Positions 5,289 through 41,500 of a stretch of DNA of 59,892 bases are shown here, one piece after another. Under the pieces are notes generated by a model. The model ran no database searches, was not told where the DNA came from, and was given only the letters and a program-made list of their open reading frames with translations. The first letter of the stretch is position 1. Each line of letters begins with the position of its first letter. The stretch lies in the IMG/VR virus record IMGVR_UViG_3300031864_000001, positions 1 through 59,892 of that record; one strand, given 5' to 3'. The translations under genes were made by a program, and so were the position numbers. This DNA is from a virus. Lineage: Duplodnaviria; Caudoviricetes.

Positions 5289-5300
5289 TTTTCACAAAAA

Positions 5301-5578: not shown

Positions 5579-5980
5579 CTACTCAGTAGATACTATGTTA
5601 GTATGTGAGAGAAAATCCTCCGGTTTATATTCTTTTATCCGTGGGCTCCACCTCATAGCTTTACCGCCTCTTTTCAATTTTACTTTACGCCAGCCGATCA
5701 GTAACAGCCGGCCGCCGTTTTGAATCCATTGCAGGGCTTTGGGCGCCACCTCGGGATCCTCGGTTATTTTTTTATTGTGCTCACTGAAGGCCTGGCCGCA
5801 GGATTGTATGGCGATAATTGAGTTTTCACCCATGGCCACGATGTCACCGAAACCGAACATGTCTTTTCGTTTTCCGAATTTCCCCGCGTATGGATTGAAC
5901 TGTTCGACCTTGTCGGCTACCCAGCCTTGAGACCTGATATATTCAAAAGTCCGTGATGTATTGCTTATGCCTTTAGCCAT
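5579..5980 (-). CDS. PD-(D/E)XK nuclease, Holliday junction resolvase-like
   Basis: GWVADKVE...DMFGFGDIVAM...AIQ pattern; located after the replication genes. Confidence 0.7.
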   Translation of the reverse strand: MAKGISNTSRTFEYIRSQGWVADKVEQFNPYAGKFGKRKDMFGFGDIVAMGENSIIAIQSCGQAFSEHNKKITEDPEVAPKALQWIQNGGRLLLIGWRKVKLKRGGKAMRWSPRIKEYKPEDFLSHTNIVSTE

Positions 5981-10498: not shown

Positions 10499-10499
10499 T

Positions 10500-11744
10500 T
10501 TATATCCCCTGTTTTTGATTTCCTTCCTTTGAAGCATTGATCTCCTTAAAGGGTAAAACCGTCTGATCCAACCCTTTCGTTGACATTTCACAATATTCAG
10601 AGTTTAAATCTATCAATATCGCTTTCCGGTTGAGCCTTTTCGCTACCCTTGCAGTCGTCCCACTTCCGCCAAAAGGGTCTAAAACAGTATCCCCTATCCG
10701 TGAACCTGCTTTGATACATGGTTCTATTAGCTTCTCAGGAAAGACGGCAAAGTGGGCGCCTGGGAATTGCTGTGTAGCGATTGTCCAGACGGAGCGTTTG
10801 TTGCGACCTTTTTCTGGATTTACAAAAGTTTTTGACCTATACCACGATGGTTTGTCCGCTTTTATTTTTTCTGGTGATTCATTATTAAAATATTTACTAT
10901 GATTTTTGCCTTGAGTATGCCTGCCTGTTGCATTTCTTCCGTCATTTAATGTGCTTTCAGCTAATTCCTCCCTTATCGCATCCGCATCGTAATAATATTT
11001 CTGAGATTTAGTGAGCAGGAATAGATACTCATGGCTTCGGGTGGGCCTATCTGTTACACTTTCAGGCATGGGATTAGGCTTTGACCAGATAATATCAGAA
11101 CGCAACCACCAGCCATCGGCTTGAAGGGATAGGGCTACACGCCAAGGGATGCCTACAAGGTCTTTGGGTTTGAGGCCATTCACCGCCGGCATATTACCCC
11201 CGCCCCAACGGCCGCTTCCTCTTGGTATCCTTTTCCCTTTGGGTAGAACTTCAGCCCTATCTCTACGAAAAGATACGCTGCCCGGATTACTTGCATAACT
11301 ATCCCCCAAATTCAAAAAGCATACCCCATCCTTTTTCAGAACCCGCCGGACCTCCCTGAAAATATCGGTTAAATGTTTGATAAATAATTCCGGTGTGGGC
11401 TCAAGGCCCAGCGATCCACGCCATGCCCCACATAGTTGGCAGAATTGGCCTTGAGAAATATCTGTTTTATGAGGTCCATTGCCTTGATAGTTTCCTTTTC
11501 TTCCGCCTATGTCACGGCCTCCATCATTTCTACCGGCTTCGGATATTGTTTCATCTCCCCACTCATGCACACATCCATCAACCGAATCCCAAATCTGAGG
11601 CGGTAATCCATAATCCCTTAATCCCCAGTATGGAGGGCTAGTTACGCACATCTGGACGGATTCGGGTTCTAAATAAGGTAATTCATTCAGCACGTGGCCT
11701 TGAATAATTGTAATTCCGTTATGATCATAGTAAGGCTTAATCAT
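10500..11744 (-). CDS. DNA methyltransferase, N4-C/N6-A (beta class)
   Basis: VTSPPYWGLRDY catalytic motif, HFAVFP, VLDPFGGSGTT; start ATG 11744. Confidence 0.93.
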   Translation of the reverse strand: MIKPYYDHNGITIIQGHVLNELPYLEPESVQMCVTSPPYWGLRDYGLPPQIWDSVDGCVHEWGDETISEAGRNDGGRDIGGRKGNYQGNGPHKTDISQGQFCQLCGAWRGSLGLEPTPELFIKHLTDIFREVRRVLKKDGVCFLNLGDSYASNPGSVSFRRDRAEVLPKGKRIPRGSGRWGGGNMPAVNGLKPKDLVGIPWRVALSLQADGWWLRSDIIWSKPNPMPESVTDRPTRSHEYLFLLTKSQKYYYDADAIREELAESTLNDGRNATGRHTQGKNHSKYFNNESPEKIKADKPSWYRSKTFVNPEKGRNKRSVWTIATQQFPGAHFAVFPEKLIEPCIKAGSRIGDTVLDPFGGSGTTARVAKRLNRKAILIDLNSEYCEMSTKGLDQTVLPFKEINASKEGNQKQGI

Positions 11745-15118: not shown

Positions 15119-15193
15119 CGCGGCGTAGAGCAGCAGTAGCTCGCCAGGCCCATAACCTGGAGGTCCCCGGTGCAATTCCGGGCGCCGCTACCA
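15119..15193 (+). tRNA. tRNA-Met(CAT), initiator-like
   Basis: Acceptor CGCGGCG/CGCCGCT with 1:72 mismatch; anticodon arm CCAGG-CCCATAA-CCTGG; T arm CCCGG-TGCAATT-CCGGG; encoded CCA. Confidence 0.92.
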
Positions 15194-18609: not shown

Positions 18610-18888
18610 ATGGAAGTAAAAGAAACCAAAAAACATTTACCGTGTGAATTGACAGAAGAAGAAATCGGTGTATTGGCTCGGAAGATTCAAAATGGCTATG
18701 AATTCCGCGATGTAGATTGCGAAATTCAATTTTTAGAAAACGAAAAAGCCGTACAGATCGTTCGACTCGATACGGGGCAAGTTATTGAGAAAAGAGCAAT
18801 GACGCCCGATGAATTACAGAAGAATCTTTTTGAAGAAGAACCCCCCGAAGAAGGGTTTGAAGAAGAAAAGGAGGCAAACCATGAGTAA
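18610..18888 (+). CDS. Hypothetical protein
   Basis: RBS AAGGAGG; LPCELTEEE...RLDTGQVI..RAMT. Confidence 0.7.
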   Translation: MEVKETKKHLPCELTEEEIGVLARKIQNGYEFRDVDCEIQFLENEKAVQIVRLDTGQVIEKRAMTPDELQKNLFEEEPPEEGFEEEKEANHE

Positions 18889-20011
18889 ACCACAAGAAAA
18901 ATTACCAGCAACACAGCAAGGAGAGAGGGGCTTACCCGTAAAGAATGAGACCATTGACGCGGTAAGCAACCGTATCAAGGTCTTGCAAAACTCCGGAGAG
19001 CTACACTTCCCACCGGATTATAGCCCACAGAACGCCTTGAAATCAGCGTGGCTGATTCTGCAAAACGTAGTGGATAGGAATCAGAAGCCAGCATTACAGG
19101 TATGCACAACGGCCAGCATATATAACGCGCTCCTGGACATGGTAATCACCGGCCTCAATCCGGCGAAGGCTCAAGGTTATTTTATCGTGTACGGCAATCA
19201 GCTCGTATTCCAGCGATCTTATTTTGGAACGCAGGCACTAGCCAAGAGGGTGAATTCCGATATTGAGGATATTACAGCCGTGGTCGTGTATAAAGGCGAT
19301 GAATTCGAGTACAGGCTCAGTAAGGGAAAAAGGATTGTGTCAAGGCATACACAGAAACTTGAAAACATTAATTCCAAGAATATCGTTGCCGCTTATTGCG
19401 AGGTCTATAATCACGAAGGGGAAATAATAGCTTCTGATATTATGACCATGGATGAAATCAAGAAGGCTTGGGCAATGAGCAAAATAAAACCGATTACTGA
19501 GAAGGGCGATATCAAGAAAGGTTCTACCCACGATGAATTCACCGAGGAAATGTGCAAGAGGACAATCATAAACCGAACCTGTAAACCGATTATCAACAGT
19601 TCGGATGATAAGCACCTTAAGCTGGCCGCCAGTCGTTCCGAGGTTGTCCGCACGGAAAATGCAATAGAGGAAGAAATTGAGGAACACGCCAATCAAGACT
19701 TTATAGACGTTGATGAGGTAAAAGAGACATCCGGCCAGGAAGAACCCCGGGAAGAACAGGCAAAAGAAGACGCGCCGGACAATGAAGAAAAAGCCTCAGA
19801 TAATAACGGCTCTGGTCGCGTGTATGTTCATTGCGAAAATCCAGATGCCAAAAGCTATTTCAAAAAAAGAATCGCCATAGAGGTCTGTGAGAATAATTGC
19901 AGATTTTTCCCTAAGTGTGAGACGGCCCAGGATGCGCTTAAAAAGGCCATGCCAGGGACAGAGACGGGGGAAGGCGAGGATGGTCAGAAGAAGCTAGGAC
20001 CGGATTTTTAA
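18881..20011 (+). CDS. recT: RecT family ssDNA annealing protein with C-terminal Cys4 module
   Basis: NALKSAWL, GLNPAKAQGYFIVYGNQL.FQRSYFG, EMCKRTII; start ATG 18881. Confidence 0.9.
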   Translation: MSKPQEKLPATQQGERGLPVKNETIDAVSNRIKVLQNSGELHFPPDYSPQNALKSAWLILQNVVDRNQKPALQVCTTASIYNALLDMVITGLNPAKAQGYFIVYGNQLVFQRSYFGTQALAKRVNSDIEDITAVVVYKGDEFEYRLSKGKRIVSRHTQKLENINSKNIVAAYCEVYNHEGEIIASDIMTMDEIKKAWAMSKIKPITEKGDIKKGSTHDEFTEEMCKRTIINRTCKPIINSSDDKHLKLAASRSEVVRTENAIEEEIEEHANQDFIDVDEVKETSGQEEPREEQAKEDAPDNEEKASDNNGSGRVYVHCENPDAKSYFKKRIAIEVCENNCRFFPKCETAQDALKKAMPGTETGEGEDGQKKLGPDF

Positions 20012-20046
20012 TAAATCTTTTAGTGGGTTTAATGAAAGGATATAAG

Positions 20047-20748
20047 ATGGATCAAATTAAAATAAGTGCAAAAAATCTTGGGCAAATAGCCCTTGATGAT
20101 TTCTGTCCAAGGTGTTTCTGGATCAAGCTCAAGGTTAATAATAAACTTCCTTGGCAGATTTTTCCCGGCATCTTTAGCTCTATTGATTCTTATACTAAGA
20201 AATGTACCCATATTCTCATTGATAAGGGATTACAGGATTTGCCGTGGCTATCAACTTTGGGTGAGATAACGAAATATCATAAAACACCTCATTGGTCTAA
20301 ATTTACAACCGATTTCCCGGAGCTTGCTATCACGCTCAATGGTTCAATGGATGATATTTTTGAACTTCAATCAGAGGCCTTTGTGATTGCGGATTACAAA
20401 ACATCAAGATATACGCCCAACCAAGATAAACTTTTGCCATTATATAGAATCCAGCTTAACGGCTATAAAATAATTGCGGAAAGATGTGGGTTTAAAGATG
20501 TTTCAGGTCTTTGGCTTATATATTTTGAACCAGCCACGGAAGAAGGGGATGCAGAGCAGAGGGCTTATCCGAACGGGTTTGATATGAGATTTAATGCAAA
20601 ACCTATTCAAATAGAAATCGATGATTCCTTAATCATAGCAGCCCTAGAAAAAACAAGAGAAATATACGAATTGCCATTGGCTCCAAGGGGCGTAGAGGGG
20701 TGCAAGGATTGTCAAAACCTTAATCCAATAATTGATATGTTTTCATAA
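20047..20748 (+). CDS. PD-(D/E)XK (Cas4/RecB-like) exonuclease
   Basis: CPRCFW, GSMDD, IADYKT, QLNGY, CKDC. Confidence 0.85.
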   Translation: MDQIKISAKNLGQIALDDFCPRCFWIKLKVNNKLPWQIFPGIFSSIDSYTKKCTHILIDKGLQDLPWLSTLGEITKYHKTPHWSKFTTDFPELAITLNGSMDDIFELQSEAFVIADYKTSRYTPNQDKLLPLYRIQLNGYKIIAERCGFKDVSGLWLIYFEPATEEGDAEQRAYPNGFDMRFNAKPIQIEIDDSLIIAALEKTREIYELPLAPRGVEGCKDCQNLNPIIDMFS

Positions 20749-21984: not shown

Positions 21985-22123
21985 AATCACAACCTGTGAT
22001 ATATGCGGGAAACAGATATGGTTTAGTGAGGGACTTATTTTTTACATAAACGGTGAACCCCGGCTGTTGTGTAAAAACTGTCAAAAGAAACATGAAAGCA
22101 ATATCATTCAGGAGAAGCCATGA
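21968..22123 (+). CDS. 51-aa zinc-finger protein
   Basis: CDICG...LCKNCQ. Confidence 0.65.
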   Translation: MIQEDEITTCDICGKQIWFSEGLIFYINGEPRLLCKNCQKKHESNIIQEKP

Positions 22124-22293
22124 CAAAATTAGACCAACAGAAAAAAGAAAACTTTTGGAAAGAAAACTTTTGGTACTGTGCCCTTGAAGATGCTATTTTT
22201 TGGATAGGGGAAAACTTAAAACCGGAAGACGTATTTAGCTTCGATAAATTGAAACTATGGGCAAAAAATCATGGATATAAGGAGAAGCCATGA
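22120..22293 (+). CDS. Hypothetical protein (57 aa)
   Basis: Manual translation; flanked by AGGAGAAGCCATGA repeats; internal 15-bp tandem duplication at 22144-22173. Confidence 0.6.
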   Translation: MTKLDQQKKENFWKENFWYCALEDAIFWIGENLKPEDVFSFDKLKLWAKNHGYKEKP

Positions 22294-22478
22294 AAATGCC
22301 TTTTGGAAAATATAAGGGCCATGATATTTGTTTTATCAATTCAGGTTATCTTAGGTGGCTCTTAGATCAGGATTGGTTTTTGCGAAGGGATGAAAACGAG
22401 ATCCTAGCCATAGAAAAGGAGCTTGAATTGAGGGATATGGATAGCTCACATTTTTATGAGGATAAAATAAATGTATAA
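22290..22478 (+). CDS. DUF3820-like protein
   Basis: MPFGKYKG...YLRWL. Confidence 0.8.
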   Translation: MKMPFGKYKGHDICFINSGYLRWLLDQDWFLRRDENEILAIEKELELRDMDSSHFYEDKINV

Positions 22479-23206: not shown

Positions 23207-23602
23207 ATGACAAACGAACAACTTGACCGATGGTTGGCTGAGGCTGAGAATGTGATGGGATGGATTTTATCATCGTATAGTAAACTGTTTTGGCATGTCA
23301 AAACGGGTCTAACAACAGGTTTTAGTAATAGTAAGGTTGGGGGAATGGATAATCTTTGGCATCCCACGACCTCAATCGAACAGGCGATGATGTGTGCTGA
23401 AAAATTAAGGCTAACAGGATATAAGATTACTTTATGGGGAAACCCACCAGAGGCAGTAAAGACAGATTCGGGTGGTAAGGCCGGATATCATTGTAGAATT
23501 ATTCCTTATGGGCAGGGTATGGAAAAGTCAATCCATGCCAAAACCCCTGAACTAGCAATATGCAAGGCAATCTATGAAGCACTAAATGACACAAAAGAGT
23601 AA
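23207..23602 (+). CDS. Phage ABA-sandwich domain protein
   Basis: VMGW...WHPTTSIEQAM..AEKL...TPELAICKA. Confidence 0.75.
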   Translation: MTNEQLDRWLAEAENVMGWILSSYSKLFWHVKTGLTTGFSNSKVGGMDNLWHPTTSIEQAMMCAEKLRLTGYKITLWGNPPEAVKTDSGGKAGYHCRIIPYGQGMEKSIHAKTPELAICKAIYEALNDTKE

Positions 23603-23783
23603 AGCCATGACCGCCCTATACGAAGAAATAGACAGGTTGAAAAGGGAAAACGGAGACCTGAAATATCACTTACGGACAATAGAACAGAAAGCCATTAGCC
23701 TATTAAGCGGTGGGCCTATTGGGCAAATTGTTGACATACGAGATATAGCAAGAGAAGCCCCGAAAAGAGGGAAGGATGAATAA
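23586..23783 (+). CDS. Hypothetical coiled-coil protein
   Basis: ORF in operon orientation. Confidence 0.6.
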   Translation: MTQKSKAMTALYEEIDRLKRENGDLKYHLRTIEQKAISLLSGGPIGQIVDIRDIAREAPKRGKDE

Positions 23784-23946
23784 TCCAGATGCAATAATAG
23801 CCAATGCTACATGGGGTGCTTGTTGGTATTGCAAGTTTTTTGATAGCAAGGGTGGTTGTGGGGTGGCTAGTAGTCCAGAAGATTTTGAATATGACCCCCT
23901 TTTAGAATCTTTTGTTTGTAAATTATATGAACAAGAGGAAAAATAA
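23776..23946 (+). CDS. 56-aa Cys-rich protein
   Basis: Manual translation; CWYC...C...C. Confidence 0.55.
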   Translation: MNNPDAIIANATWGACWYCKFFDSKGGCGVASSPEDFEYDPLLESFVCKLYEQEEK

Positions 23947-23992
23947 TTGACCCATCTCCCCCAAATAGATAATATCCCCCAAAAGGGGGTGA
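23947..23992 (+). promoter_or_regulatory. Recombinase promoter and RBS-occluding hairpin
   Basis: TTGACC-N17-TAATAT followed by CCCCC-AAAA-GGGGG hairpin covering the SD. Confidence 0.55.
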
Positions 23993-23997
23993 TAGAA

Positions 23998-25047
23998 TTG
24001 AGCAATAGATGTCGGATTGTCTATCTCAAGGACAGGAAAGAGTATGCACTCAGGCTTTACTGGAAGGGGAAGGAGTATCACAGGGGACACTATGACAACC
24101 GATTAAGGCTTATTTATAAGAAGCTCGCTGAACGCCTGCAATCAGCCATTAATCAGGACATAGACGACAAGGGAGAGGATTTCGACCCCCGGATGTGGTT
24201 TGTGTCAGACCGGGAGCTACAATTCTCATACGCTGTGGACGAATGGTATAAGACAAAGGAATACGCCCCGGGGACTATTAGAAACGTGGAATCAGCCATA
24301 GCAAGGGCAAAAGAGTATTTTGGGGATACCAATATCAAAACCATCCGCAAGGCTCATATCAAAAAATTCGTGGACACCCTGCCTCAATCCCCGAATACCA
24401 AGAGGGCAATCTTAAGCTACCTGAAATCGGCCTTAAATGATATATGCGATGACTGGCACTTGATGAGGATACCCTTTCCCTTTATTACCATACCCTACAG
24501 CGAACAGAAGTGGCTAAAAAGAGAACAGCAGGATAAGCTAATAAACCTTATCCCTGATTATAATTACCCGATATTCAGGCTAATGCAAGCCTATGGTTGC
24601 CGAACCTCTGAGGCGTGTGCCTTGATGTGGGATTGTGTGGATTGGGAAGAAAGGACAGTCTTTTTCAAGAGAACATTCTCAGCCCAGACTATTTTAAGGG
24701 AAACGACTAAAACGGGATATTATAGGAAGGTTCCACTGACAGACAATATCATAATCCTGCTTAGACCCTTACGCTTGGATATTAGCAATCAGTTTGTTTT
24801 TAAGAACCTCTTGGGTGAGCCGTACAGACAGCAAACAGTATGGCAGATATGGAATAGGATATTAAAGAGAAACGACATAGAGCATATATCAGTTAAGAAC
24901 GCCTTTAGGCATAGCAAGGTAAGCCAATTAGAGGAGGCGGGGTATTCCCTAGAAGAACGTCAGAGATTTATGGGACATAGGAATCCGAACACGACACAGA
25001 TTTATTCACATAAAGATGTGCAAGAATTGAAAGGAATGGTGGGATGA
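23998..25047 (+). CDS. Tyrosine recombinase/integrase
   Basis: GCRTSE, TKTG, NAFRHS (His of HxxR replaced), MGH, TQIY; N-terminal arm-binding-like region; probable TTG start at 23998. Confidence 0.9.
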   Translation: MSNRCRIVYLKDRKEYALRLYWKGKEYHRGHYDNRLRLIYKKLAERLQSAINQDIDDKGEDFDPRMWFVSDRELQFSYAVDEWYKTKEYAPGTIRNVESAIARAKEYFGDTNIKTIRKAHIKKFVDTLPQSPNTKRAILSYLKSALNDICDDWHLMRIPFPFITIPYSEQKWLKREQQDKLINLIPDYNYPIFRLMQAYGCRTSEACALMWDCVDWEERTVFFKRTFSAQTILRETTKTGYYRKVPLTDNIIILLRPLRLDISNQFVFKNLLGEPYRQQTVWQIWNRILKRNDIEHISVKNAFRHSKVSQLEEAGYSLEERQRFMGHRNPNTTQIYSHKDVQELKGMVG

Positions 25048-25244
25048 TGTTCGTTGTTAGAAAATATTTAGCATACCTTGTTTTTGATGAATCTGAGGGG
25101 ACTGATAGTCCAACAATCGCCATCGAACCATTAAATAATTTAGTAACACCTGCTATTTTTGAAGAGCAACGCTATGGAAAAAATCCATTAGATGCTTATA
25201 GAATGGCGAGAAAAATAGCGAAAGATCTTAATAATAAAGAATGA
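25044..25244 (+). CDS. Hypothetical protein
   Basis: ATGA-coupled to the recombinase. Confidence 0.6.
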   Translation: MMFVVRKYLAYLVFDESEGTDSPTIAIEPLNNLVTPAIFEEQRYGKNPLDAYRMARKIAKDLNNKE

Positions 25245-25277
25245 AAAAGTACGAAAGTGATACGAGAGGGAGAAAAA

Positions 25278-25478
25278 ATGGCACATTCTGAAGTATGTCC
25301 GGTTTGTCGTGGTAGGGGTATAGTTGAGGCTCACCCTGAATGGCAAACAGACATAAACGCCTCAACACCAAAGCCCTGTCATGGATGTGGTGGATTAGGT
25401 TGGGTAAGTGTTCAAGATGAATCTATTACAAAATTAATTCATGGTCATATTCCAACAGCAACAGATGGGCAGAGATAA
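25278..25478 (+). CDS. DnaJ-type zinc finger protein
   Basis: CPVCRGRG and CHGCGGLG. Confidence 0.75.
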   Translation: MAHSEVCPVCRGRGIVEAHPEWQTDINASTPKPCHGCGGLGWVSVQDESITKLIHGHIPTATDGQR

Positions 25479-25480
25479 AT

Positions 25481-25759
25481 AACCCTCCCCGCCGGAAATG
25501 GCAATAGACATATGTGAAGATTTTATAAAATATACATTTGGAAAGGAAAACAATGCGGGTTTGTAGTTTTTGTGGCAATACTGAAGCAGAGGTCGAAGTT
25601 ATAATTGCGGGGCCGTCTGGACTTTTTATCTGTGAGACCTGCGTTGAGTTATGTTGGGAAATAGTTAAAGATCGAAAAGGAGCTCGTCTTATAAAAGAAA
25701 TTGAACAAGAGAAGTTTAATGAATTATGGGGCACAGACTAACAACCCTCCCCGCCGGAA
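25481..25759 (+). repeat. 17-bp direct repeat A (AACCCTCCCCGCCGGAA) x2
   Basis: 25481-25497 and 25743-25759, flanking one gene. Confidence 0.9.
25553..25741 (+). CDS. Stand-alone ClpX-type C4 zinc finger
   Basis: CSFCG...IIAGP...FICETCVELC.EI. Confidence 0.85.
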   Translation: MRVCSFCGNTEAEVEVIIAGPSGLFICETCVELCWEIVKDRKGARLIKEIEQEKFNELWGTD

Positions 25760-25778
25760 GGGGAAAGGAGAGAGTGAT

Positions 25779-26063
25779 ATGGAAAGACCTAAAGAAAAAT
25801 ACAATGAAGAGTATGACCTTCATTATTATGATGATTATGAAGCAGACCAATATATGGACGACCTCGAATCCCGCCTCAAGAAAGTGGAGGCGAGAATGGA
25901 GGAAGCAAGGGAATCTTTAGAAACCGACCCCGATTATGATACAGGACTCATTAATGACTATGGTGGTGGCAATATCGGGTGGTGGCAGGATTACATACGG
26001 TCAGAGATTGAAAGATGCAATGAATATTGGAAGGAAAGAATAGAACAAGCCCTCAAGGAATAG
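25779..26063 (+). CDS. Hypothetical protein (paralog of next gene)
   Basis: MERP...LESRLKK...ALKE. Confidence 0.7.
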   Translation: MERPKEKYNEEYDLHYYDDYEADQYMDDLESRLKKVEARMEEARESLETDPDYDTGLINDYGGGNIGWWQDYIRSEIERCNEYWKERIEQALKE

Positions 26064-26082
26064 GGCAATAAAAGGAGAGAAG

Positions 26083-26397
26083 ATGGAGAGACCAAATATA
26101 TACAGTGAAAAATACCAAGGAATGCCGTCTGCCGTTATAGAAGATCAAGAAGAATATATCAATTACCTCGAATCCCGCCTCAAGAAAGCAGAGGCGAAGG
26201 TGGAGAAAGCCATTACCATTACCGTTGAAGATTGCGAAAATTGGGTCTGTTTTTCAAAAGTAAGAGGTCATAATTGTTATGCTTGCTCCATGAGAAAGGG
26301 TTATCCATTCAGGGGACAACCGGACAATAAGCGTGAAAGATTTAAATTAAAACAAACCCTTAAGGAGGACGACCATGAAAAAGAAGAAGGTCATTAG
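26083..26397 (+). CDS. Hypothetical protein (paralog of previous gene, Cys-rich variable part)
   Basis: MERP...LESRLKK...TLKE. Confidence 0.7.
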   Translation: MERPNIYSEKYQGMPSAVIEDQEEYINYLESRLKKAEAKVEKAITITVEDCENWVCFSKVRGHNCYACSMRKGYPFRGQPDNKRERFKLKQTLKEDDHEKEEGH

Positions 26398-26566
26398 ATT
26401 TTTAAAAGATGTCATAGTTAATCATGAGTATTGGGCATGGCGATTTAAAAAATACCCGAAACTTGAAAAGAAATATGTCGCCACAGGTGAGTGGGATGAT
26501 GCAAAAATGCAAAGGAAGCATGTTAAGCGATATAAGCAAATCATAAGTTACATAAAAAAATTATAG
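26375..26566 (+). CDS. Basic hypothetical protein
   Basis: RBS AAGGAGG. Confidence 0.65.
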   Translation: MKKKKVIRFLKDVIVNHEYWAWRFKKYPKLEKKYVATGEWDDAKMQRKHVKRYKQIISYIKKL

Positions 26567-26953
26567 GGCAACAACCCCTTCACTCGGCTAGGTGGGGTTG
26601 GGGTGAGGAAAGGAGGAAGCACGAGAGTGTGTAGAGAAAATCAAAGTTTATGGAAAGGAATAGCCTTGTGTTTTAATGGCTTTGATAAATGGTATTATCT
26701 TAAAAGATTGTTTCGGCTTGTCTTTTATGGTAATGGATATTTCTGGCATGACACGCTAGGAAGGTATATTAATCGATGGTTCATTTGTCCTTTAATCGGA
26801 CATAGAAATATTCGCTATCTTGATAATGGTGGTTGTCGTGGGGAGCAACCTTATTATCATTGTTTTGATTGTGAACAGAGAATTAACTTAAAGAAAATTT
26901 AACCCCTAGACAGTAGGGCAACAACCCCTTCACTCGGCTAGGTGGGGTTGGGG
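26564..26953 (+). repeat. 40-bp perfect direct repeat B with hairpin, x2
   Basis: TAGGGCAACAACCCCTTCACTCGGCTAGGTGGGGTTGGGG at 26564-26603 and 26914-26953; CAACCCC/GGGGTTG stem. Confidence 0.95.
26603..26902 (+). CDS. Hypothetical protein (C...GH...CxxC type)
   Basis: ICPLIGH...CFDCE; lies between the B repeats. Confidence 0.65.
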   Translation: MRKGGSTRVCRENQSLWKGIALCFNGFDKWYYLKRLFRLVFYGNGYFWHDTLGRYINRWFICPLIGHRNIRYLDNGGCRGEQPYYHCFDCEQRINLKKI

Positions 26954-26967
26954 AGAAAGGAAAAATT

Positions 26968-27384
26968 ATGGATAGAAGAAAAGCAATAAAACATATAATA
27001 AGTATAATAGGGGGCGTACCTATAATATCAAAATTAGGTATTTGTGGAAACAAAGATGATGAACCATTAATTTGTAAACAAAAGTTTTTTAGAGGTCAAA
27101 CCGTCAAAATAATAAGAGCCCTTCCTGCCGATATGAATCATTTTGAACCTGGTGTAAGGGCCATTATTGAGTATAGCTATTCGGATCGTTATGGCGGAAA
27201 CGACACTGGAAGTTATTCCTTATTGCTTTTAGAGCCTTATCCTCATTCTGTAGCATGGTATGAAGAAAATCAACTTATACTTATTAATTCAGATCGGGGT
27301 ATAGGAGAAAAAATATTACAAAATTATAAAGAGAATAATTTACGGCGGTATATTCAATATGTTTATCGTATGACGGCACAGTGA
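26968..27384 (+). CDS. Hypothetical protein with twin-arginine-like N-terminus
   Basis: MDRRKAIK plus hydrophobic stretch; VAWYEENQL SH3-like region. Confidence 0.65.
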   Translation: MDRRKAIKHIISIIGGVPIISKLGICGNKDDEPLICKQKFFRGQTVKIIRALPADMNHFEPGVRAIIEYSYSDRYGGNDTGSYSLLLLEPYPHSVAWYEENQLILINSDRGIGEKILQNYKENNLRRYIQYVYRMTAQ

Positions 27385-27421
27385 GTCTAGTTTCACGCCT
27401 GCAAGATGAAAGGAGACGGAG

Positions 27422-27844
27422 ATGAAAAAGATAATATTTGTTTTGGTAATGTTAATGATAGCAAGTTTTTCTTTCGGAAAAGCATATAACTGGAAATTAC
27501 CAGATAATTCGATTCCCAAAGAATACCCCGATTACCTTTTGGTAATTAGATATTGGGGCTCAAAGCTTCAACAAGAAGGGGATATAGCATATTCTATACA
27601 GACATGGATATATTCTTATGAAGTCTATGATAGCCTTGATGAAGTGATAAATCGCTTAAATACTTATTGTGGACAAGGGATGACGGCAGAAGACAAAGAA
27701 ACAGATTTAGTTGGTTTATGGAGACTAGGCGGGCAAGAGCAGAATATATTAGATAAGGTTATCCAAATAGACGAAATCCCTCATGAAAAAGAAGTTAAAA
27801 TTGAAACCCGTGAATGGATAGAGTATCAATGGAAAAAGAAATAG
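27422..27844 (+). CDS. Secreted hypothetical protein
   Basis: Sec signal MKKIIFVLVMLMIASFSFG; RBS AAAGGAG. Confidence 0.75.
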   Translation: MKKIIFVLVMLMIASFSFGKAYNWKLPDNSIPKEYPDYLLVIRYWGSKLQQEGDIAYSIQTWIYSYEVYDSLDEVINRLNTYCGQGMTAEDKETDLVGLWRLGGQEQNILDKVIQIDEIPHEKEVKIETREWIEYQWKKK

Positions 27845-27895
27845 TGCAGGCCCCCTAGAGGCGGTATATTCAACTAGGTTTTACGCCTGCAAGAT
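27845..27895. terminator. Hairpin at the convergence of the two transcription arms (repeat C)
   Basis: TGCAGGC/GCCTGCA and CCTAG/CTAGG arms; no U-tract, so terminator function is inferred from position. Confidence 0.5.
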
Positions 27896-28053
27896 TATCC
27901 CTTTAATGATTTGCCTACCGCAACACCGAATAACCCTGTCAATGCACTTTGAACGAGTCCCAATGCTTCAACGCTTGGATTCGCAAATATAGCACATAGA
28001 CAGATAATAACAGTTGCCCCAATAACGAGATCTTTATCATCCAAATCTGGCAT
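27895..28053 (-). CDS. 52-aa two-TM holin-like protein
   Basis: Manual translation MPDLDDKDLVIGATVIICLCAIF...GLFGVAVGK; RBS GAGGAGG. Confidence 0.65.
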   Translation of the reverse strand: MPDLDDKDLVIGATVIICLCAIFANPSVEALGLVQSALTGLFGVAVGKSLKG

Positions 28054-28055
28054 TT

Positions 28056-28235
28056 TTATTCCTCCTCATAGGTATCCGGATGAGGAACCCTGTCTGCCAA
28101 GGCCCGGATATCCTCCGCAGTAGGATTATCGGTTTCAAGGGCCGCTAAGATTTTTAAGGTTGCTGGAACACCATATTTTAAAACAAGTTCCAGTATTGTC
28201 ATGCCGACAGTTATTCTCTCTTCTATTTTTCCCAT
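28056..28235 (-). CDS. 59-aa lysis-cassette protein
   Basis: Manual translation ...LVLKYGVPA...PTAEDIRAL; RBS GGAG. Confidence 0.6.
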   Translation of the reverse strand: MGKIEERITVGMTILELVLKYGVPATLKILAALETDNPTAEDIRALADRVPHPDTYEEE

Positions 28236-28237
28236 GA

Positions 28238-28603
28238 CTAATCTCCCTTCAAAAACGGCTGAATATATTTTGTAAGAGTATTAAGGCATTTAATAGCTTC
28301 ATTAATAGCTACATTTACCTTTTCTCTGTTCTCAGCCGAATTAAATGAATCGTAAGCCTCTAATGCCCTTTCTGCTGAATGATAAGCAGCCCAATATTTC
28401 ACGGCTAAATCATAACCCTTTTCTTTATCCGCGTCAGATATCAAACCTTTCTTATGTAATTCAAGAAAAGCTGGATAACCTTCTTCATAGCCTGTTGCGG
28501 CTATATCTAAAGTTTGGTACGATGCAGCCCGGAAATTTGATGCGCAGGCCATTAAGAAAAATACGAAAAATAAAAACATTGTATAAAATTTCAATTTCCT
28601 CAT
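28238..28603 (-). CDS. Lipoprotein, spanin candidate
   Basis: Lipobox LMAC after a hydrophobic signal; helical body; follows the endolysin. Confidence 0.7.
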   Translation of the reverse strand: MRKLKFYTMFLFFVFFLMACASNFRAASYQTLDIAATGYEEGYPAFLELHKKGLISDADKEKGYDLAVKYWAAYHSAERALEAYDSFNSAENREKVNVAINEAIKCLNTLTKYIQPFLKGD

Positions 28604-35579: not shown

Positions 35580-38500
35580 TTATTGATTTACAGTCATAAA
35601 CAGTTTATTAATCCGCATCATTTCATTGTTTATTTTTTGTTGTTCATCTCGTATCTTATTATTTTTTAACCGAATAGGCAACTTGGAACCTTTTATTTGA
35701 TCGATTTTTTCATCAAACCGCTTGATTTTCCTCTTAGCAATATCAACCTTGGTGTCCAGATTTAGTAAATACTTCTTTTTCTGTTCCACCTCTTTGGCTT
35801 CTTCGTCCTTGCCCTGATCTCTTAGGTTTTTGATATCCCGTTCGGCGTATCTGATCTTGGCTAGGTTATTATAATAAGTCATCTCATCGTAATATTCGCT
35901 TGTTTCCCCGTAAACACGCCTGACAATAGGTATTTCGCTTGGTTTTATGTCCTCACCCACGATCAATTTCCACGGATCGGCAACAGTCTGGCTTATTGTG
36001 CGGCCAAGACTGCCTGTAAAAGTGTCCCATACTAAGTCAAGGGCTTCTGGTGATACATTAATGCCCCCGGGTTCTTCACCTGGCTCATTGAAAACATCAT
36101 ATAGCTTCTTGGATATCCACTTTGAAGGCTCCCGGCAACTGCTCCAATATAGCTGATATTCAGGTTTCGGGACATCAAAAGGCTGTTGCTCAGGTTTCAA
36201 CGGTTGGCCTGCAAAGTTCTCGTTGGTCTTCCATTGGATATAAGGATCTATTACCGTGGGAGATATTATTTGAGCTATCGATCCTTCACCACCAAGCGGG
36301 TTAAAGGCTGATATTGCGGCACTTACCATCCTCATTATATATTTTGTTGGTTCATAAGGTTTATCTATTATACCTATGCGATAAGAAAGCGATTCCCCGG
36401 CTATCTGGCCTGCCACATGGAATACGTTGTACCCCCAAGGCATGGGTATTTTGAAATAATCCCCTTCGTTTAACAGGTTAGGAATAATAATATTCCTCTC
36501 CTTAACCCATTCGGGGATTTTGTCATATTTCCATTCATCATCGTCGTCCTGCCCCATCATTAGCCTGCAAGCGATATCCCATAATCCTGCAAATGCCATT
36601 GTTCCTAAAGCCAGCCTTCTGACACTCGGACTTCGATAAAGCGCTGTTATCATCCTGGCCGATCCCTGGATCCCTGCATTATAGAATAGATATAGAGCAT
36701 TAATTGTGGGTCCGGCCATACCTTTCCGATTAAAATTCACCGTGATATTCTTGGCAACACTCATGGCGTTTTGTTCCGTTACACCAATATCTTCTATGAG
36801 ATGCCTGAAGAGAGATAGCCTGACAGCGTTTTCAACCGCTGTATTTTCTTTTGATATTAAATCAAGAATATAGCGCATCCCCCTCATGCTTCTATGGAAC
36901 GGATCACCACCCCGAGCTCTCAGTTCCCTTTCCAGTCTTCGGCGTCTGGTCTCTATATCCTTATAATGGCTTGTCCAACCGGTTTGAGCCCCTGATTTCC
37001 GGTATCTTTCATACCATTGCACCCATTCATTGCCTTCGTCTTTGCCCGCGATGCCTTTACGAATTCCCTGCAAAGCCTTGAATATATCTTTATACATGGC
37101 TTTTCTCAGGTTCTTGCCAACAGTATCGGATATATTATATCCGGCTGTCTGAACGTCTCGTATAAAGTTCGAGAGTATAAATTCTGGACTTCCGCTTGTA
37201 TTGACAAAAGCCAAGAAACGGTTAAAGGTTGCGGCCATTCTTATTAATGCCATAGAATTTGGAGCACCTAAGTTTCTCATGGCCTTCACTGTTCTCATTG
37301 CATGGACATTTTCGGGATTAAACCAGATAGTATGTTCTTCAGCGTTTTCATCCTTTACAAGAAGCACATTATCGGCAAACCTGAACATCGGATCACGGCC
37401 AAACGTGACTTCGTTTAATATTACCGATTGCCCGGTAAGGGGGTCTATCTCTTTCCTTTTTTTCAGATACGCCTTGTGTTCCTCTCTATCCACCTCCCAA
37501 ACGGCTTTATTCGGGTTTTCAGTAGCCAGTTTTAAAAGGGCCCGGCCAACCTTCACCTTTTCTGTTCTGATCAGCGTCGCTTCATGCTGTGCAACAATAT
37601 TTGTCAAGACATTAACAGCCGGCGCATGACTGCCAGAAAGACGCGGGTGGACCTCTTTTCCTCTTATATCTAAACCCCTCCCGCGTTTCGGGGTCCCGGC
37701 CTTTCTTTTTAGAGGAATATAGTATTTATAAGCCTTTTCCCAATTAGCAATCTCTTCCGCTGATACCAAGCCAGACTTTTTTAACGTATTTCTGGTAGCC
37801 TTAGTTATAGTATCGACCATTTCGGCAATCTCTTTTATGTCTGAATTGCCTTTATATTTTTGCAGGATCTTGAGGGCATCTTCATTTTTCATGCCAGATA
37901 GCCACTCATTCTCTTCCCTATCAGGATTCAATCTCTGAAAGCGGGTGTTGGCTTCTGGTGCATGCCGGGCATATAAATATTCTTCAACTTCTTCCAGGGA
38001 TAAACCTGATTCGTGTATTTGATCAAGAAGGGGTTCAACCATGTCCCGATTAAAGTCTTGAATATTGGCCCAAGCCGCCCCGTGCATGGCTTCCTCTACC
38101 TGATATGCGTTGGCCTCGTCTTCTGTTTCCTCACCCCGGGTCATTTCAATAGCTTTTTGGATCCTTGACAAGGAATTCAATCTATCCTGAACCTGCCATT
38201 GGACATAATCAAAGGCCTGGCGTAACGTACTATCATCGCCTATGGTAAATCCATCTGAAAACATGGGTGTTTCGCCGGTCTGTTTATGTGTGGCCATATT
38301 TTTTACGACTTGATCCCGGATGTCTTTATTGGCTCTTGATTTATCCAGAATATCCGCTATCCAGCCCTCCGCCCATTCCTTTGACTTTTCTTTAGGAGCT
38401 GCTCGCTTTTTGCCAAGGGTGATCTCAATGGCTCCGGTTTCACTTTTTAATCTGGTTTTTACATCATTCCAGATATATTTGATAAGATTCCGGATTTTCT

Positions 38501-41500
38501 CCCATACCTCGGAAAAGGAACTTTTCATCTGTCTTGCAAAATCGGAGTATTTTTGATGGCCTTGGTTATAATAATGTGTGCCGACTGTAATGAGATCGTC
38601 ATAAAAAGGAGACTCACTTTTGACTTTTGCCCAGGAGATTGAGCCGCGCTCGTCTTTGAGGCGGGAGGTTACGCGGGATTTGGCTTGGTCTAATAATTCC
38701 TTGTAATCAGGTTGAGCAAGGGCGTATTTGGCTCCAAATCTTACGATTACTTCTTTGTTGGGAATCCCTTGGGTGGCATAGGGAGTTACCATCATTCGGG
38801 CTTGTTCATCAAATTCGGCCCTTGTGGCTACATCCCGAGCCTCAATTTCGCCCGCAAGGTGGAGGTATTGCTTAAATGCCTTATCGGGCAACACCCCCAT
38901 ATCACACCTTCGTAAAGCATCTCTTGTTTGACTATTATTAATATCAAACCCCCGTTGCTTTAAATCATCCATTGCCTGATAAAATTCTTTGTGCATGGGG
39001 CTATTGTTTCTTGTTTCTAAATCTTTATGTGTCATTTTAGATGCTACATATCGTGCCTGTTCATCTTGGAATTCTTTAGAATTTCTTATTTTTTCTGCCT
39101 GCTCAAACCTTATTGACGCTGATACAAAATGTTGCTGTAATATTTCCTTCTCACTTTTGGGTGATCCCCCCCTTGCAAATCCCTCTATTCCCTGAATACT
39201 ATGCTGAATTTCATGGATAAGGTGTTCTTTGGCTTCTTTTATATTTTTACCTCTAATATCTATCTGTGGCTCAAGGTCAAATAATCCTGGCGTAAAAGAC
39301 CCTCCGGGATTTTGCATATTTTTATCAATCATTATATTGATGAGGGTATTTTTAAGCTCAGGGTATGCTTTAAATAGTTCTTTATGTTCAAATATTTCAC
39401 TAAGCGTTGTGTGTCTTTCACCAATGCCCAATGAATCAACCTTTATATTCTTAATTTTTGCTTTTGAATCATCTATCTCATATCGCCATTTATCATCGGG
39501 ACCCAAAAACCAACCCGTGTCCCTACGGATCTCTCCAGCAGATTTACCCCTTTGATTCATTTGTGAGGCAATATCAAGGGCTGTAAGGTCTGCTGTGCGT
39601 GATTCGGGGCCAGCATAGGCGTGTTTTACCAGCCCTTTTGCTCCCCTCGCCCCTCTCTCCCAAACCTCTCCTGTCCTGACCTTCTCAAAGCTCGTCTGCC
39701 AGTTCGGGAAGAAGTTATTTAGTATCTTGTTAAAAAACCTCTTTATTTTCTGAAAGATGGTGTTTTTCTCCTGCTCCGCCTTCCATTTACCATAGGCATC
39801 GGCGGCATTTTCTTCCTTCCCGTGTTTCTTTAAAACACTGGCTCGCTCTTTATTGTTAAGAACCAGGTCCATTGCCGCGTGAAAGGCTTCATGGTCTGTC
39901 TTTTCCTGACCGGCATATTTTGACAGCCACATAAGGCCGTCGGTTCCCACCTGCTTCCATGCCGCTACCGCCACCTCTCCCCTTTTAGCCTTGCGTCCAT
40001 ACCCTATCCTTATCTGCTCAGGATCAGGCCGTATCACGCCCGTATTAGCCATTACGACTATCTGTGACCGGTTGGGCAGGGTAAGATTAAAGATGTCCCC
40101 AGCTTGCTTTATTTTGGCCGTAGGGAAGGCATTTTGAATGATGTCAGGGGTTATCGGTGCTGGCTTAAAGGCTCCCTTACTAAGAGCAAATTCGGGAAAC
40201 AAATTTCCAAGCCTGCCCTCACCAGCAGTTATGATATTCCTGAGAATAGTATTGCTGTTTGCTCCATTTCTTATAAAATGCTCTAAGGTCTTCATTGCTC
40301 TATCAAATAAAGCAGGGGATTCCGAAAAACTTTTCCTAAGTAACGGGGGGGCAAAATGAATTATAGCATCTTTGTATTGTTTTGATGTGCCTATCCATCC
40401 CCTGATAAAATCATCGTAATCCCCCCTTGCCCCTGATTTTTCAAGTTCCTCGGCGTGTGAACTAACATCAATATTGCCGGTACCCAAAACCATTTCGGCT
40501 GTTTTGGGATTATACATGAAACGCTGATTACGAATATTATGAATATCGTAGGGTTGGTTTTTGATAAGCTGAACTTGTCCTGTTATTTTAACAGGTTTAA
40601 TCTCTTTAATTTCAGCAAGGCCATATTTAACCTCTTCTGTGGCTTTCTTGATCTCTATCCCCTTAGCCTCAACCTTTCCCTTGGCTTCCTCGGGGGTCTT
40701 GGTAGGGGCTTGCCCCCCACTCTCCGGGGGGCGGGATGGTTTAGGGAGTTCAAATGTCGATTTTATTTGAGATGGTTCAAAAACAATATATGAATCACCC
40801 CCCAATTCAACAGTGTTGTGATATACTATACCATCATAACCTTTTTCTCTCATTTTGCCCACAATCCATTGATCTAATTCATTGCCCAATTCATGGATTT
40901 TTTCTGAATGATATTTCACCTTTTTTTTATATGCAGTTTCTCCTATTTTATCTCTCAGGCGATCCCACCTTAATTGATTTCCTTCACCCGGTAATCTTAA
41001 GGCTATAGAATTCGTAAAATCTTTTACATCTTTGAAATATTGTGAATATCTTTTATTCCATTCGGATGCTTTTAATATTCTTTTCTTGATCAATTTCTCT
41101 GGTAATGTAGTGAAATCCCATGATCCTAAATCATTGAGTCTTAATGGTTTTTTTAAATTTATATATGCAGATTTTATCTGGACATTTTTTGTAATACTAG
41201 GTAATTGATTTTGTAAGTCATTAATTCTACTTCGCGCACTTTTAATAGTGCCAAAATGTATTCCTATGCCCCTTATATCATTTATGCTAGGTGCTTTTGA
41301 TTCAAAATCACTAAATTCTCTAAAAGTTCCATGATAAACTTTATCCCGTACAACACTTTTCTTAAAAGGATTCCCACCCTCGGGCTTCGGGGTTTCTGCG
41401 GTGGGTATTTTGGCCTTACCCCGTTCTTTTTCCACGGGTTCTACTTTAGCAGATTCAGCTTCCTCTTTCAACTCAGGATATTCGGCTAGCACTTCTTCGG

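Follow-up and report, generated by a model that had tools for sequence, protein, structure and literature searches.

Single genes bracketed by short direct repeats form a cassette-like, variable array at the 3′ end of a salt-marsh phage early operon

The sequence analysed here (the window, 59,892 nt) is a metagenome-derived 59.9-kb record of a salt-marsh phage. At the 3′ end of its rightward early operon lies an array of small plus-strand genes, mostly of unknown function, separated by short repeated spacers. Seven of the ten proteins of the array region have no Pfam match at E ≤ 0.1, and a PHROGs search of the array proteins returned weak or functionless matches only, the ClpX-finger families excepted. 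The features of the operon are given below, some of them with reference to a metagenome contig, L080, that carries part of the same array.

18809–20011, + strand: RecT-family annealing protein (Pfam PF03837, 1.6e-31)
20023–20748, + strand: PD-(D/E)XK nuclease (PF12705, 2.2e-5)
23947–25047, + strand: tyrosine integrase (PF00589, 8e-27), on the same strand as the array
25239–25277, + strand: spacer from stop codon to Shine-Dalgarno before gene 25278, common to other gene contexts
25278–25478, + strand: ORF for a 66-aa CXXC zinc-finger protein (DnaJ_CXXCXGXG at 22.8 bits, under the 32.7 cut-off)
25467–25504, + strand: repeat A1 (core 25481–25497), by repeat comparison
25553–25741, + strand: stand-alone ClpX-type C4 zinc finger of 62 aa, the cassette between A1 and A2 (PF06689, 4e-16, 59.1 bits against a cut-off of 27)
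25729–25766, + strand: repeat A2 (core 25743–25759), then GGGGAAAGGAG and the start codon at 25779
25779–26063, + strand: 94-aa gene, paralogue of 26083–26397 and of L080 729–1025
26049–26072, + strand: small hairpin GCCCT/AGGGC spanning the stop codon, with the TAGGGCAATAA stub (−8.1 kcal/mol, z −2.1); a haplotype breakpoint
26083–26397, + strand: 104-aa paralogue whose C-terminus runs through a former spacer into the start of the next gene
26375–26566, + strand: 63-aa gene (ORF) upstream of B1, 100% identical in L080
26564–26606, + strand: repeat B1, by repeat comparison
26627–26902, + strand: 91-aa Cys-rich protein of no known family, the cassette between B1 and B2, 100% identical in L080
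26902–26919, + strand: small hairpin CCCTA/TAGGG after the stop codon (fold z −2.56), at the right end of the block in common with L080
26914–26956, + strand: repeat B2, by repeat comparison
26968–27384, + strand: 138-aa gene (ORF) downstream of B2, with an N-terminal hydrophobic segment (by eye)
27344–27407, + strand: repeat C1, a 14-mer within the 3′ end of the gene plus an 18-mer past its stop codon
27422–27844, + strand: last cassette gene (ORF), 140 aa, with a signal-peptide-like N-terminus (by eye)
27845–27895, + strand: repeat C2, in a long hairpin TGCAGGC...GCCTGCA, adjoining the stop of a converging minus-strand gene

Each of the three repeat pairs, A, B and C, brackets exactly one small plus-strand gene and has no copy elsewhere in the record; the first-pass annotation had described single genes between such direct repeats, and all of the repeats are where it placed them. 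The A cores are identical over 17 nt (25481–25497 and 25743–25759) within a similarity that stretches over 38 nt at 82%. B is exact over 40 nt (26564–26603 and 26914–26953) and reaches 43 nt with one mismatch, while C pairs 18 nt with one mismatch (27390–27407 and 27878–27895) and has an additional exact 14-nt copy at 27344 and 27860. The 18-mer and 14-mer pairs together indicate that C2 is a copy of the 3′ end of gene 26968–27384 plus its trailer, with about 28 nt missing. Could such pairs be due to chance? Allowing up to three mismatches, A has two matches in the window, as it also did in one of 100 shuffles; B has two matches, a number reached in 0 of 100 shuffles, and two matches of C were given by one shuffle in 100. 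Exact direct repeats of at least 14 nt within 1 kb number 39 in the window, mostly in two coding tandem tracts, and four of them fall in the 2.4-kb array; across 100 block shuffles of the window the mean was 0.31 and the highest value 2.

The position of the repeats relative to the genes is precise. Stop codons abut or lie in them, as had been claimed: the TAG at 26564–26566 forms the first three bases of B1, and the TAA codons at 25476–25478 and 25739–25741 stand 2 nt and 1 nt ahead of the A cores. The end of B directly precedes the own Shine-Dalgarno of each downstream gene, and within B there is an inverted repeat, CAACCCC/GGGGTTG, with a 7-bp stem and a 15-nt loop. A pattern CAACCC...CGG...GGGG proposed as common to A and B is found in A2 and in B but not in A1, which has TAACCC and no G tract; across the array, where every repeat has two copies, there is no consensus past a loose (T/C)AACCC...GGGG pattern. 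The stub reported at 26061 is indeed there as TAGGGCAA, an 8-mer that occurs six times in the window, three of them in the array, and is weak evidence alone. Gene 25779–26063 shares 63 nt at 81% with 26148–26210, and the proteins of the paralogues can be aligned too.

Is the array variable in natural populations? Assembled contigs from four salt-marsh metagenome runs, X4 to X7, of one year and possibly of a single campaign, show polymorphism gene by gene, with breakpoints at the spacers. One X6 contig joins 26563 to 26914, which is the exact 350-bp B-to-B deletion that the first-pass annotation had suggested looking for, with one B left. This joint skips 350 nt, has at least 91 nt on either side and 40 nt that fit both sides, and is seen in a single contig of depth about 4 from which gene 26627 is missing; X6 depth over 26612–26825 is 0. 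Missing cover was read as informative for this gene in X6 only, as a contig joins across it. Overlapping X4 contigs (26574–26630, 26601–26943 and 26924–27379) run from B through gene 26627 to B, and a loose end before 26563 in the same run places a different, third gene end ahead of B. The neighbours of B are consequently 26627 and 26968 downstream, and 26375, 26627 and the third gene end upstream. Three different sequences lead into the spacer at 25239, as is seen from loose ends before 25239, 25241 and 25250 in runs X4, X5 and X7. At the other end of the array, the commoner form in these three runs joins 27444 to 27846, keeping 27422–27444 and all that follows from 27846, and lacking the body of gene 27422–27844, whose depth in X4 is 6.8 against 21–24. 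Contigs of X4 and X5 stop at 26070, where X4 depth drops from 25.2 to 8.5, and the X4 blocks 26071–26563 and 27351–27848 are at about one third of the flanking depth. All ten of the listed joints lie between 25269 and 27846, most ends being in spacers or in the first codons of genes; several joints other than that of X6 have 20–31 nt on the shorter side and an inner sequence given as ‘not known’. No back-joint, of the kind that an excised mini-circle would give, is listed for the contigs. These data support a cassette-like, hypervariable stretch, as judged from the array itself. The outcome named beforehand as refuting the proposal, with B always beside the same gene and no cassette polymorphism, is not what was found.

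Might the repeats and the order of the genes stem from strain mixtures collapsed into a chimeric metagenome contig? The window is a metagenome-derived record, and single runs contain more than one haplotype side by side; the 40-nt B, moreover, is longer than the 31-letter contig word, so phasing across B is impossible from these contigs. Repeats A and C, on the other hand, are shorter than the word and are spanned by contigs, and a single 3815-nt X4 contig covers the A-region sequence through 26070. The overlapping contigs of B, gene 26627 and B come from an independent run, X4, which carries no flag as a possible source, and L080 independently has gene 26375, B and gene 26627. An assembly artefact is hardly credible.

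How far do the repeats and their genes extend beyond this phage? The exact 29-mer of B has 0 matches in IMG/VR and 0 in genome_contigs, and the 28-mer of A with its Shine-Dalgarno has 0 in genome_contigs. The 17-mer of the A core hit four loci in IMG/VR (L003–L006), all in GC-rich unrelated contexts and judged to be chance. A RecT search gave 73 loci, among them L007, a 99%-identical 4-kb fragment that ends short of the array, the others being at most 62% identical; a B-like pattern was found in 0 of 77 loci besides the window's own, and tblastn of ten array proteins against the loci matched the integrase only (10 loci, 21–35% identity). No relatives of the integrase appeared in IMG/VR or genome_contigs, and blastn against the ‘phages’ collection gave no match. 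For the paralogue family, 389 pattern matches in IMG/VR yielded 0 confirmed members. The search for relatives of gene 26627 found none, and in the ESM Atlas its best score was 0.88, with no family. Gene 26968 has one homologue, 45% identical, in an unrelated 59.7-kb phage contig (L081) in which comparable repeats are absent. Exact look-up of the array proteins returned 1–7 contigs each, too few for interpretation.

The single metagenome-contig match for the B 29-mer is L080, whose ORFs are mostly unrelated to the window: two of its eleven ORFs have a match anywhere in the 59.9-kb window and nine have none. A search for relatives of its DUF5675 protein led to one unrelated contig only (L082). 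With the window, L080 has in common 564 bp at 100% identity (26355–26918), a gene–B–gene block made up of 26375, B and 26627. An identical 564 bp together with only two matching ORFs out of eleven points to different phages having recently exchanged a block bounded by spacers. L080 also has one A only, and this A is chimeric, its left part being A1 exactly for 23 nt and its right part like A2; the ClpX-zinc-finger gene is absent. A single chimeric A is the product expected of recombination between A1 and A2, and L080 has the ‘empty site’ for A. The position of gene 25278–25478 is occupied in L080 by two other genes, L080 154–188 resembles the spacer 25239–25277 (36 nt at 91.7%), and at the place matching the former spacer of 26083–26397 it has TAA followed by CAACCCTTAAGGAGG.

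The other end of the block calls for a different kind of joining. Identity with L080 stops at 26918, and the right end of the block shares only five nucleotides (TAGGG) with B, so that this junction needs microhomology or illegitimate joining. It speaks for regarding the repeats as passive footprints: illegitimate or microhomology joining would take place anywhere, selection would keep the intergenic junctions, and the repeats would be what unequal crossovers between close relatives had left behind, the spacers having no particular role or function. Selection for intact genes alone would equally leave breakpoints between genes. Repeats of two copies only, a C2 that is a degraded partial copy, and hairpins, promoters and terminators that do not rise above chance all fit this account as well. 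Random joining, however, would not predict junction sequences that are used again. The same 40-nt B and the same A occur in the otherwise unrelated L080, B is preceded by at least three different neighbours and followed by two, and the 36-nt spacer at 25239 recurs in three further contexts. We consider purely passive footprints unlikely.

What could the spacers be doing, if not recombining? Every one of them has a small GC-rich stem-loop at or just past the stop codon, in a region of 38% GC. C-tract/G-tract stems are present in A2, in B, in the two small stop-codon hairpins and in C2, with energies mostly within the range of shuffles: the hairpins of A, B and C give z values of −1.18 to +0.58 and the long hairpin of C2 folds no better than its shuffles (z about −1). 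The two small hairpins at 26049 and 26902 do fold better than most shuffles. A sigma-70-like scan of 23500–28600 gave 15 promoter-like sites, against 15.6 ± 4.0 by chance, none of them within A, B or C. Terminator-like sites in the same interval number 8, a weak excess over the 4.1 ± 2.2 of shuffles, and six of the eight are on the minus strand inside the array. Around the cassette genes the scan found no promoter-like site of their own and no plus-strand terminator-like site, and Rfam had no match to the stretch at E up to 1. The 20 runs listed for the stretch include no RNA runs.

On a regulatory explanation the spacers would mainly serve expression, for instance as hairpins that stabilise or process mRNA, as insulators of translation, or as terminators that stop antisense read-through coming from the late operon on the converging strand; they would travel with the genes and recombination would be incidental. 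The ubiquity of the stem-loops, the two better folds and the minus-strand bias of the terminator-like sites speak for it, as does C2, whose long hairpin is followed by a T-rich run on the minus strand exactly at the meeting point of the two operons, where it may act as a terminator. Set against these are the weakness of the terminator excess, the ordinary folds of A, B and C, and the lack of covariation, the only relative, L080, being identical across B. As the main explanation it is improbable, yet it is compatible with shuffling and does not exclude it.

A tyrosine recombinase precedes A1 by 430 bp on the same strand, which invites comparison with integrons; in that case the adjacent enzyme would insert and excise circular cassettes site-specifically at the repeats. 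Integron parts are reported from some phages (PMC9892861). Like integron cassettes, the units here are promoterless single genes in one orientation, with a structured repeat after each, a tyrosine recombinase nearby and a content that differs between relatives; the 7-bp inverted repeat in B adds to the likeness. There are also differences. The recombinase belongs with the generic phage tyrosine integrases and not with the IntI type: its identity as an integron integrase was rejected on scores far under the cut-offs (24.8 bits against 265 for TIGR02249 and 16.7 against 435 for PRK15417), from matches confined to the C-terminal ~55 residues. It overlaps its neighbours, is separated from A1 by two genes, is not divergent from the array and has no attI-like gap beside it; the attI and Pc arrangement of integrons is missing. 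The repeats do not resemble attC sites either. A and C have no inverted arms, and the arms of B are 15 nt apart, whereas the cores of tyrosine recombinases have spacers of 6–8 bp. Where attC sites are imperfect palindromes of similar structure whose sequence differs between cassettes, each pair here consists of two near-identical direct copies, the three kinds are unrelated, and A, B and C have no site architecture in common. Three different sequences, each near-identical within its pair, bear the signature of homology-based duplication and deletion rather than that of one recombination site used throughout. Homology, as opposed to a defined crossover site, is also what the chimeric A and the 40 nt of overlap at the B deletion point to. 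In L080, which has A and B, the ~190 bp ahead of the array contain no recombinase gene (a weak point, the contig being short) and no ORF of at least 40 aa on that strand, and the array does not begin directly past a gene. An integron-like system is very improbable. The proposed tie between the array and the upstream recombinase is not supported, given the shared strand, the two genes before the first repeat and the dissimilar start of the L080 array. The broader proposal, of an integron-like but non-integron platform for gene capture and shuffling at the end of the early operon, survives in its cassette polymorphism, its location at the operon 3′ end and its non-integron nature, whereas site-specific capture is not supported.

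How, then, would genes be gained and lost? On balance we lean towards homology-driven shuffling at short spacers composed of stop codon, stem-loop and Shine-Dalgarno, with the PeSL cassettes of T4-type phages as the analogue, from which the array would differ in being promoterless. The stretch would be the hyperplastic accessory-gene end of the early operon of a temperate-type phage, and each short GC-rich spacer would begin at the stop codon of the preceding gene, take in a C-tract/G-tract stem-loop and end just ahead of the ribosome-binding site of the following one. As the same spacers adjoin different genes in co-occurring phages, they may act as homology patches. Recombination between two spacer copies in one genome would delete the gene and leave one spacer, sometimes chimeric, and the reverse event or an unequal exchange between genomes would add or swap a gene, bracketed by direct repeats. 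The genes would ride on the operon transcript, with no promoter in the spacers. Shuffling is favoured by three independent one-gene repeat pairs, by the ‘empty sites’ of B and A and by the varied neighbours of B. It is also favoured by the RecT and PD-(D/E)XK nuclease that the phage encodes, plausibly its own recombination pair for this purpose; pairs of the RecT/nuclease type recombine via a few tens of bases of homology. It is weakened by A, whose 17 exact nucleotides are short for efficient homologous recombination, and by the two copies per repeat and the X6 deletion resting on one contig. Any function that would conserve the spacers is hypothetical, as hairpins and promoter-like sites are at chance level and Rfam gives no match, and contigs cannot tell rates or direction (gain versus loss). 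We infer that the spacers bring about the exchanges and are not simply markers of them; either the phage RecT/nuclease pair or host recombination would carry them out, and regulatory use would conserve the stem-loops.

PeSL (promoter-early stem-loop) cassettes were described in T4-type phages (Arbiol et al. 2010, PMC2839356; Comeau et al. 2014, PMC4122927). The elements are short and intergenic, extend from the upstream stop codon to the downstream Shine-Dalgarno with a G/C-tract stem-loop, and are clustered where small genes without known function make up a hyperplastic region, all of which applies here. The PeSL stem-loop acts as a terminator or attenuator, a role that would be hypothetical for the array. 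Their topology, in which an ORFan that lies between two elements in one phage is matched in a relative by one chimeric element (PMC2839356), finds its counterparts in the X6 joint for B and the chimeric A of L080. The mechanism proposed for them, homologous recombination between elements through circular intermediates, may by analogy apply to the array. In contrast to the PeSL elements, which contain a strong sigma-70-like early promoter, A, B and C have none and the genes would depend on operon read-through. The repeats here measure 17–43 nt in two copies each, against a PeSL homology over ~100 bp and ~50 copies per genome, and the carrier is a 59.9-kb integrase/RecT phage, not a T4-type myovirus.

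An older parallel is found in lambdoid phages, with the ‘linker’ or boundary sequences between modules and the moron concept that are reportedly due to Susskind and Botstein, Clark et al. in 2001 and Juhala et al. in 2000. There too, short boundary sequences are said to have been proposed as crossover points between dissimilar phages, and single accessory genes sit between neighbours. Here, unlike in the lambdoid linkers, the boundary sequences are duplicated in one genome around single genes, and whereas morons reportedly bring their own promoter and terminator, neither is evident around the cassette genes in the site scan.

To our knowledge, gain and loss of small accessory genes in phages is usually ascribed to rare illegitimate recombination plus selection or, in T4-type phages only, to PeSL recombination. 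A PeSL-like topology (repeat-bracketed genes, empty sites with a single chimeric spacer in the case of A, and an identical block in a foreign genome) is now seen in a very different phage, integrase-bearing and RecT-encoding, with evidence straight from natural populations. A more far-reaching version, which we offer tentatively and would not bet on, is that the spacers are a working promoterless cassette-exchange system, in which phages of one salt-marsh community take part although they are otherwise unrelated. Genes would travel singly or as two-gene blocks from one genome to another, and would enter or leave the array, through annealing at stem-loop spacers of 17–40 nt; the catalyst would be the phage's RecT/nuclease pair, with the adjacent integrase as a less likely candidate, and the 564-bp substitution-free block amid foreign sequence would be a transfer caught in progress. 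If the spacers do drive exchange, spacer-mediated shuffling would be a general promoter-independent route of gene flow among phages, and such spacers could be used for finding exchangeable accessory genes in viromes. Among the cargo of this array are a stand-alone ClpX zinc finger, zinc proteins of the CXXC type and proteins predicted to be secreted.

What lies between the repeats of the small-gene array at 25481-27895? Repeat comparison within the window showed that the three direct-repeat pairs A, B and C proposed in the first-pass annotation are all real and correctly placed, and its claim of single bracketed genes holds for 3/3 pairs, each of which encloses exactly one gene.

Repeats of the array and the genes between them
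25481 and 25743, + strand: repeat A (A1, A2), 17 nt exact, with similarity reaching 38 nt at 82%
between A1 and A2, + strand: 62-aa stand-alone ClpX-type zinc finger (PF06689, 4e-16)
26564 and 26914, + strand: repeat B (B1, B2), 40 nt exact, or 43 nt with one mismatch
between B1 and B2, + strand: gene 26627, 91 aa, Cys-rich, without known family
27390 and 27878, + strand: repeat C (C1, C2), 18 nt with one mismatch, plus an exact 14-mer at 27344 and 27860
within pair C, + strand: 140-aa protein with a signal-peptide-like start

Two matches were attained in 0/100 shuffles for B and in 1/100 for each of A and C. The 2.4-kb array holds four exact direct repeats of at least 14 nt within 1 kb, against a mean of 0.31 and a maximum of 2 per shuffled window. 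A third copy of A, B or C was not found in the window with up to 3 mismatches allowed. A further repeat, the fourth (63 nt at 81%), falls in coding sequence and belongs to the paralogous genes 25779 and 26083, which have their N-terminal 45 residues in common. Stop codons abut the repeats or fall within them, and the repeated part of B stops just 5' of each downstream gene's own Shine-Dalgarno sequence.

Do these genes vary between phages? The stretch is contained in 20 public runs, every one labelled salt-marsh metagenome, 3/20 being a possible source of the window. Contigs of four other runs (X4-X7, none flagged as such a source, possibly from one campaign) were compared over 24900-28100. 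They are built from 31-letter words, from which phasing across the 40-nt B is impossible; at many joints the shorter side is only 20-31 nt, with the inner letters left unspecified. One X6 contig, of depth ~4 and with flanks of 91 nt or more, joins 26563 straight to 26914, skipping exactly 350 bp; 40 nt at the joint fit either side, and X6 depth is 0 over 26612-26825. This contig is a single-B form without gene 26627. In the independent sample X4, overlapping contigs (26574-26630, 26601-26943 and 26924-27379) confirm that B-gene-B is continuous; that the arrangement is an artefact is hardly credible. X4 depth is 25 until 26070, 8.5 over 26041-26593, ~30 over 26601-26943, 6.8 over 27351-27848 and 21 beyond. 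A 3815-nt X4 contig terminates at 26070, just past the stub (a short B-like piece at 26061), and a loose end brings a different sequence, with a terminal stop codon, immediately 5' of B at 26563. This loose end indicates that the commoner X4 form has other DNA between stub and B1. Joints of 27389 to 27422 and of 27444 to 27846 recur in X4, X5 and X7 alike; the commoner form keeps the first 23 nt of the last gene and carries a different body from there to the C2 hairpin. Contigs of X5 (26359-26918) and X7 (26574-26918) both depart from the window inside B2, past TAGGG.

Hardly any close relatives turned up in the collections searched, and a single metagenome scan for B returned only L080, a contig of 3817 bp. 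Window positions 26355-26918 (564 bp: gene 26375, B, gene 26627 and its 3' hairpin) are 100% identical there. Downstream of gene 26627 come a different 125-nt spacer and different genes; the - strand genes of L080, a DUF5675 protein among them, are missing from the window. In total, 2/11 L080 ORFs match the window (tblastn, E up to 0.01). An identical block of two genes, together with the short spacers seen in the window, thus stands in an otherwise different phage. L080 lacks the ClpX-finger gene and has a single A, which matches A1 exactly over its left 23 nt and resembles A2 in its right part; downstream of it comes a third member of the 25779 paralogue family. The anticipated cassette polymorphism is thus borne out by this absence and by that of gene 26627 from X6, and B is not bound to one gene, as its X4 neighbour attests. 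A 36-nt spacer resembling 25239-25274 precedes two different L080 genes. One encodes a 69-aa HNH endonuclease (485-694; PF01844, 2.3e-8) with its 3' end inside the A element; a homing-type nuclease adjoining a swap point could also favour local exchange. The final ~15 codons of gene 26083 (26350-26397) correspond to a spacer at L080 1020-1050 (TAA then CAACCCTTAAGGAGG); the window lacks that TAA, and the ORF extends 23 nt into the next gene.

How might such genes move? Single genes within direct repeats, matching one-spacer 'empty sites' (chimeric for A) and the 40-nt overlap zone at the B deletion all point to recombination between repeated spacers. We hold, with little better than even confidence, that array genes are exchanged in this way; that the repeats are a passive footprint is possible, if doubtful. 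Recombination of spacer with spacer inside one genome would lose a gene and yield a circular product, and recombination between genomes, or of circle with genome, would add or swap one. The phage encodes a RecT/nuclease pair, and pairs of this type work on short homologies (a few tens of bases), which makes it the likeliest, putative enzyme for spacer recombination. At the right end of the L080-shared block only five bases overlap with B, so microhomology joining appears to contribute too.

The first-pass annotation called the array 'integron-like but non-integron', and the second half of this label stands. Integron membership fails on integrase-model scores, on integrase strand and position, and on repeat type. 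On two integron-integrase models with cut-offs of 265 and 435, the integrase reaches 24.8 and 16.7 bits, it lies on the array's strand and is not adjacent to the first repeat, and the repeats form three direct pairs, near-identical within a pair and unrelated between pairs, rather than attC-like palindromes; integron-like site-specific recombination is therefore very improbable. A closer parallel is offered by the promoter-early stem-loop (PeSL) cassettes of T4-type phages; passages on those of phages phi1 and RB49 draw the same recombination model (PMC2839356, PMC4122927). The array shares their position, stem-loop content and two-element versus one-element topology. However, the PeSL-defining promoter is missing from its repeats in a sigma-70-like site scan, its elements are much shorter and fewer, and the phage is not T4-type. 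By analogy, the array works like PeSL cassettes yet is not a member.

Each spacer has a small C-tract/G-tract stem, although the array is AT-rich (GC 38% versus 42.8% overall).

Stems of the array
in A2: CCCC-7-GGGG
in B: CAACCCC-15-GGGGTTG
at the stub, over the stop of gene 25779: GCCCT-8-AGGGC
3' of the gene 26627 stop: CCCTA-5-TAGGG
around C2: TGCAGGC...GCCTGCA

The stub (TAGGGCAA) can be taken for a piece of B and equally, given the stop-codon hairpin, for that hairpin's 3' arm. Is the role of the repeats mainly regulatory? This is improbable, and would be compatible with exchange between spacers. Over 23500-28600, 8 terminator-like sites were counted (shuffles: 4.1 +/- 2.2), of which 6 lie on the - strand within the array. 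Fold energy beats most shuffles solely for the two smallest hairpins (z -2.1 and -2.56); the B, A and C hairpins fold no better than shuffles (z -1.18 to +0.58). No sigma-70-like site falls inside any repeat, their total is at chance level, and an Rfam search gave no match at E up to 1.

In the window record (59,892 bp, completeness rated 100%, no end repeats found), two gene runs converge at the array.

~13.7 kb to 27,844, + strand: run including an SMC-like ATPase, RecT, a PD-(D/E)XK nuclease, a metallo-beta-lactamase-fold protein and a tyrosine integrase
from 27,895 onward, all genes - strand: NlpC/P60 enzyme, 1182-aa fibre-like protein and 3024-aa protein

The array is thus the 3' end of a rightward operon, meeting converging - strand genes. 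The 3024-aa protein comes from a single - strand ORF (35580-44654), a very long reading frame for a phage genome of 60 kb. The early region includes a tRNA-Met (CAT) gene (15119-15193), and a dense GGC/GGCAT-rich coding tract at 9989-10190, in - strand ORF 9911-10591, probably encodes a glycine-rich or collagen-like segment. A word of 14-19 nt (TCTGTTTAGATGACA...) occurs four times at 6298-6453, spaced by 24, 30 and 87 nt, in or beside - strand ORF 5965-6672; the copies resemble repeated binding sites of the iteron or operator kind. A short tandem repeat of period 14 nt (TTAAGAAGGTATGA) occupies 5232-5290, between ORFs 4693-5184 and 5579-5980. Non-coding gaps are few near the integrase; one of them, the 74-nt spacer following A1, contains an AT-rich palindrome, TGAAGATTTTATAAAATATACA, at 25505-25552. 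Upstream of the array, an exact 14-nt repeat, AGGAGAAGCCATGA (22110-22123 and 22280-22293), comprises a Shine-Dalgarno sequence and start codon before small ORFs 22120-22293 and 22290-22478, and may be another duplicated translation-start spacer.
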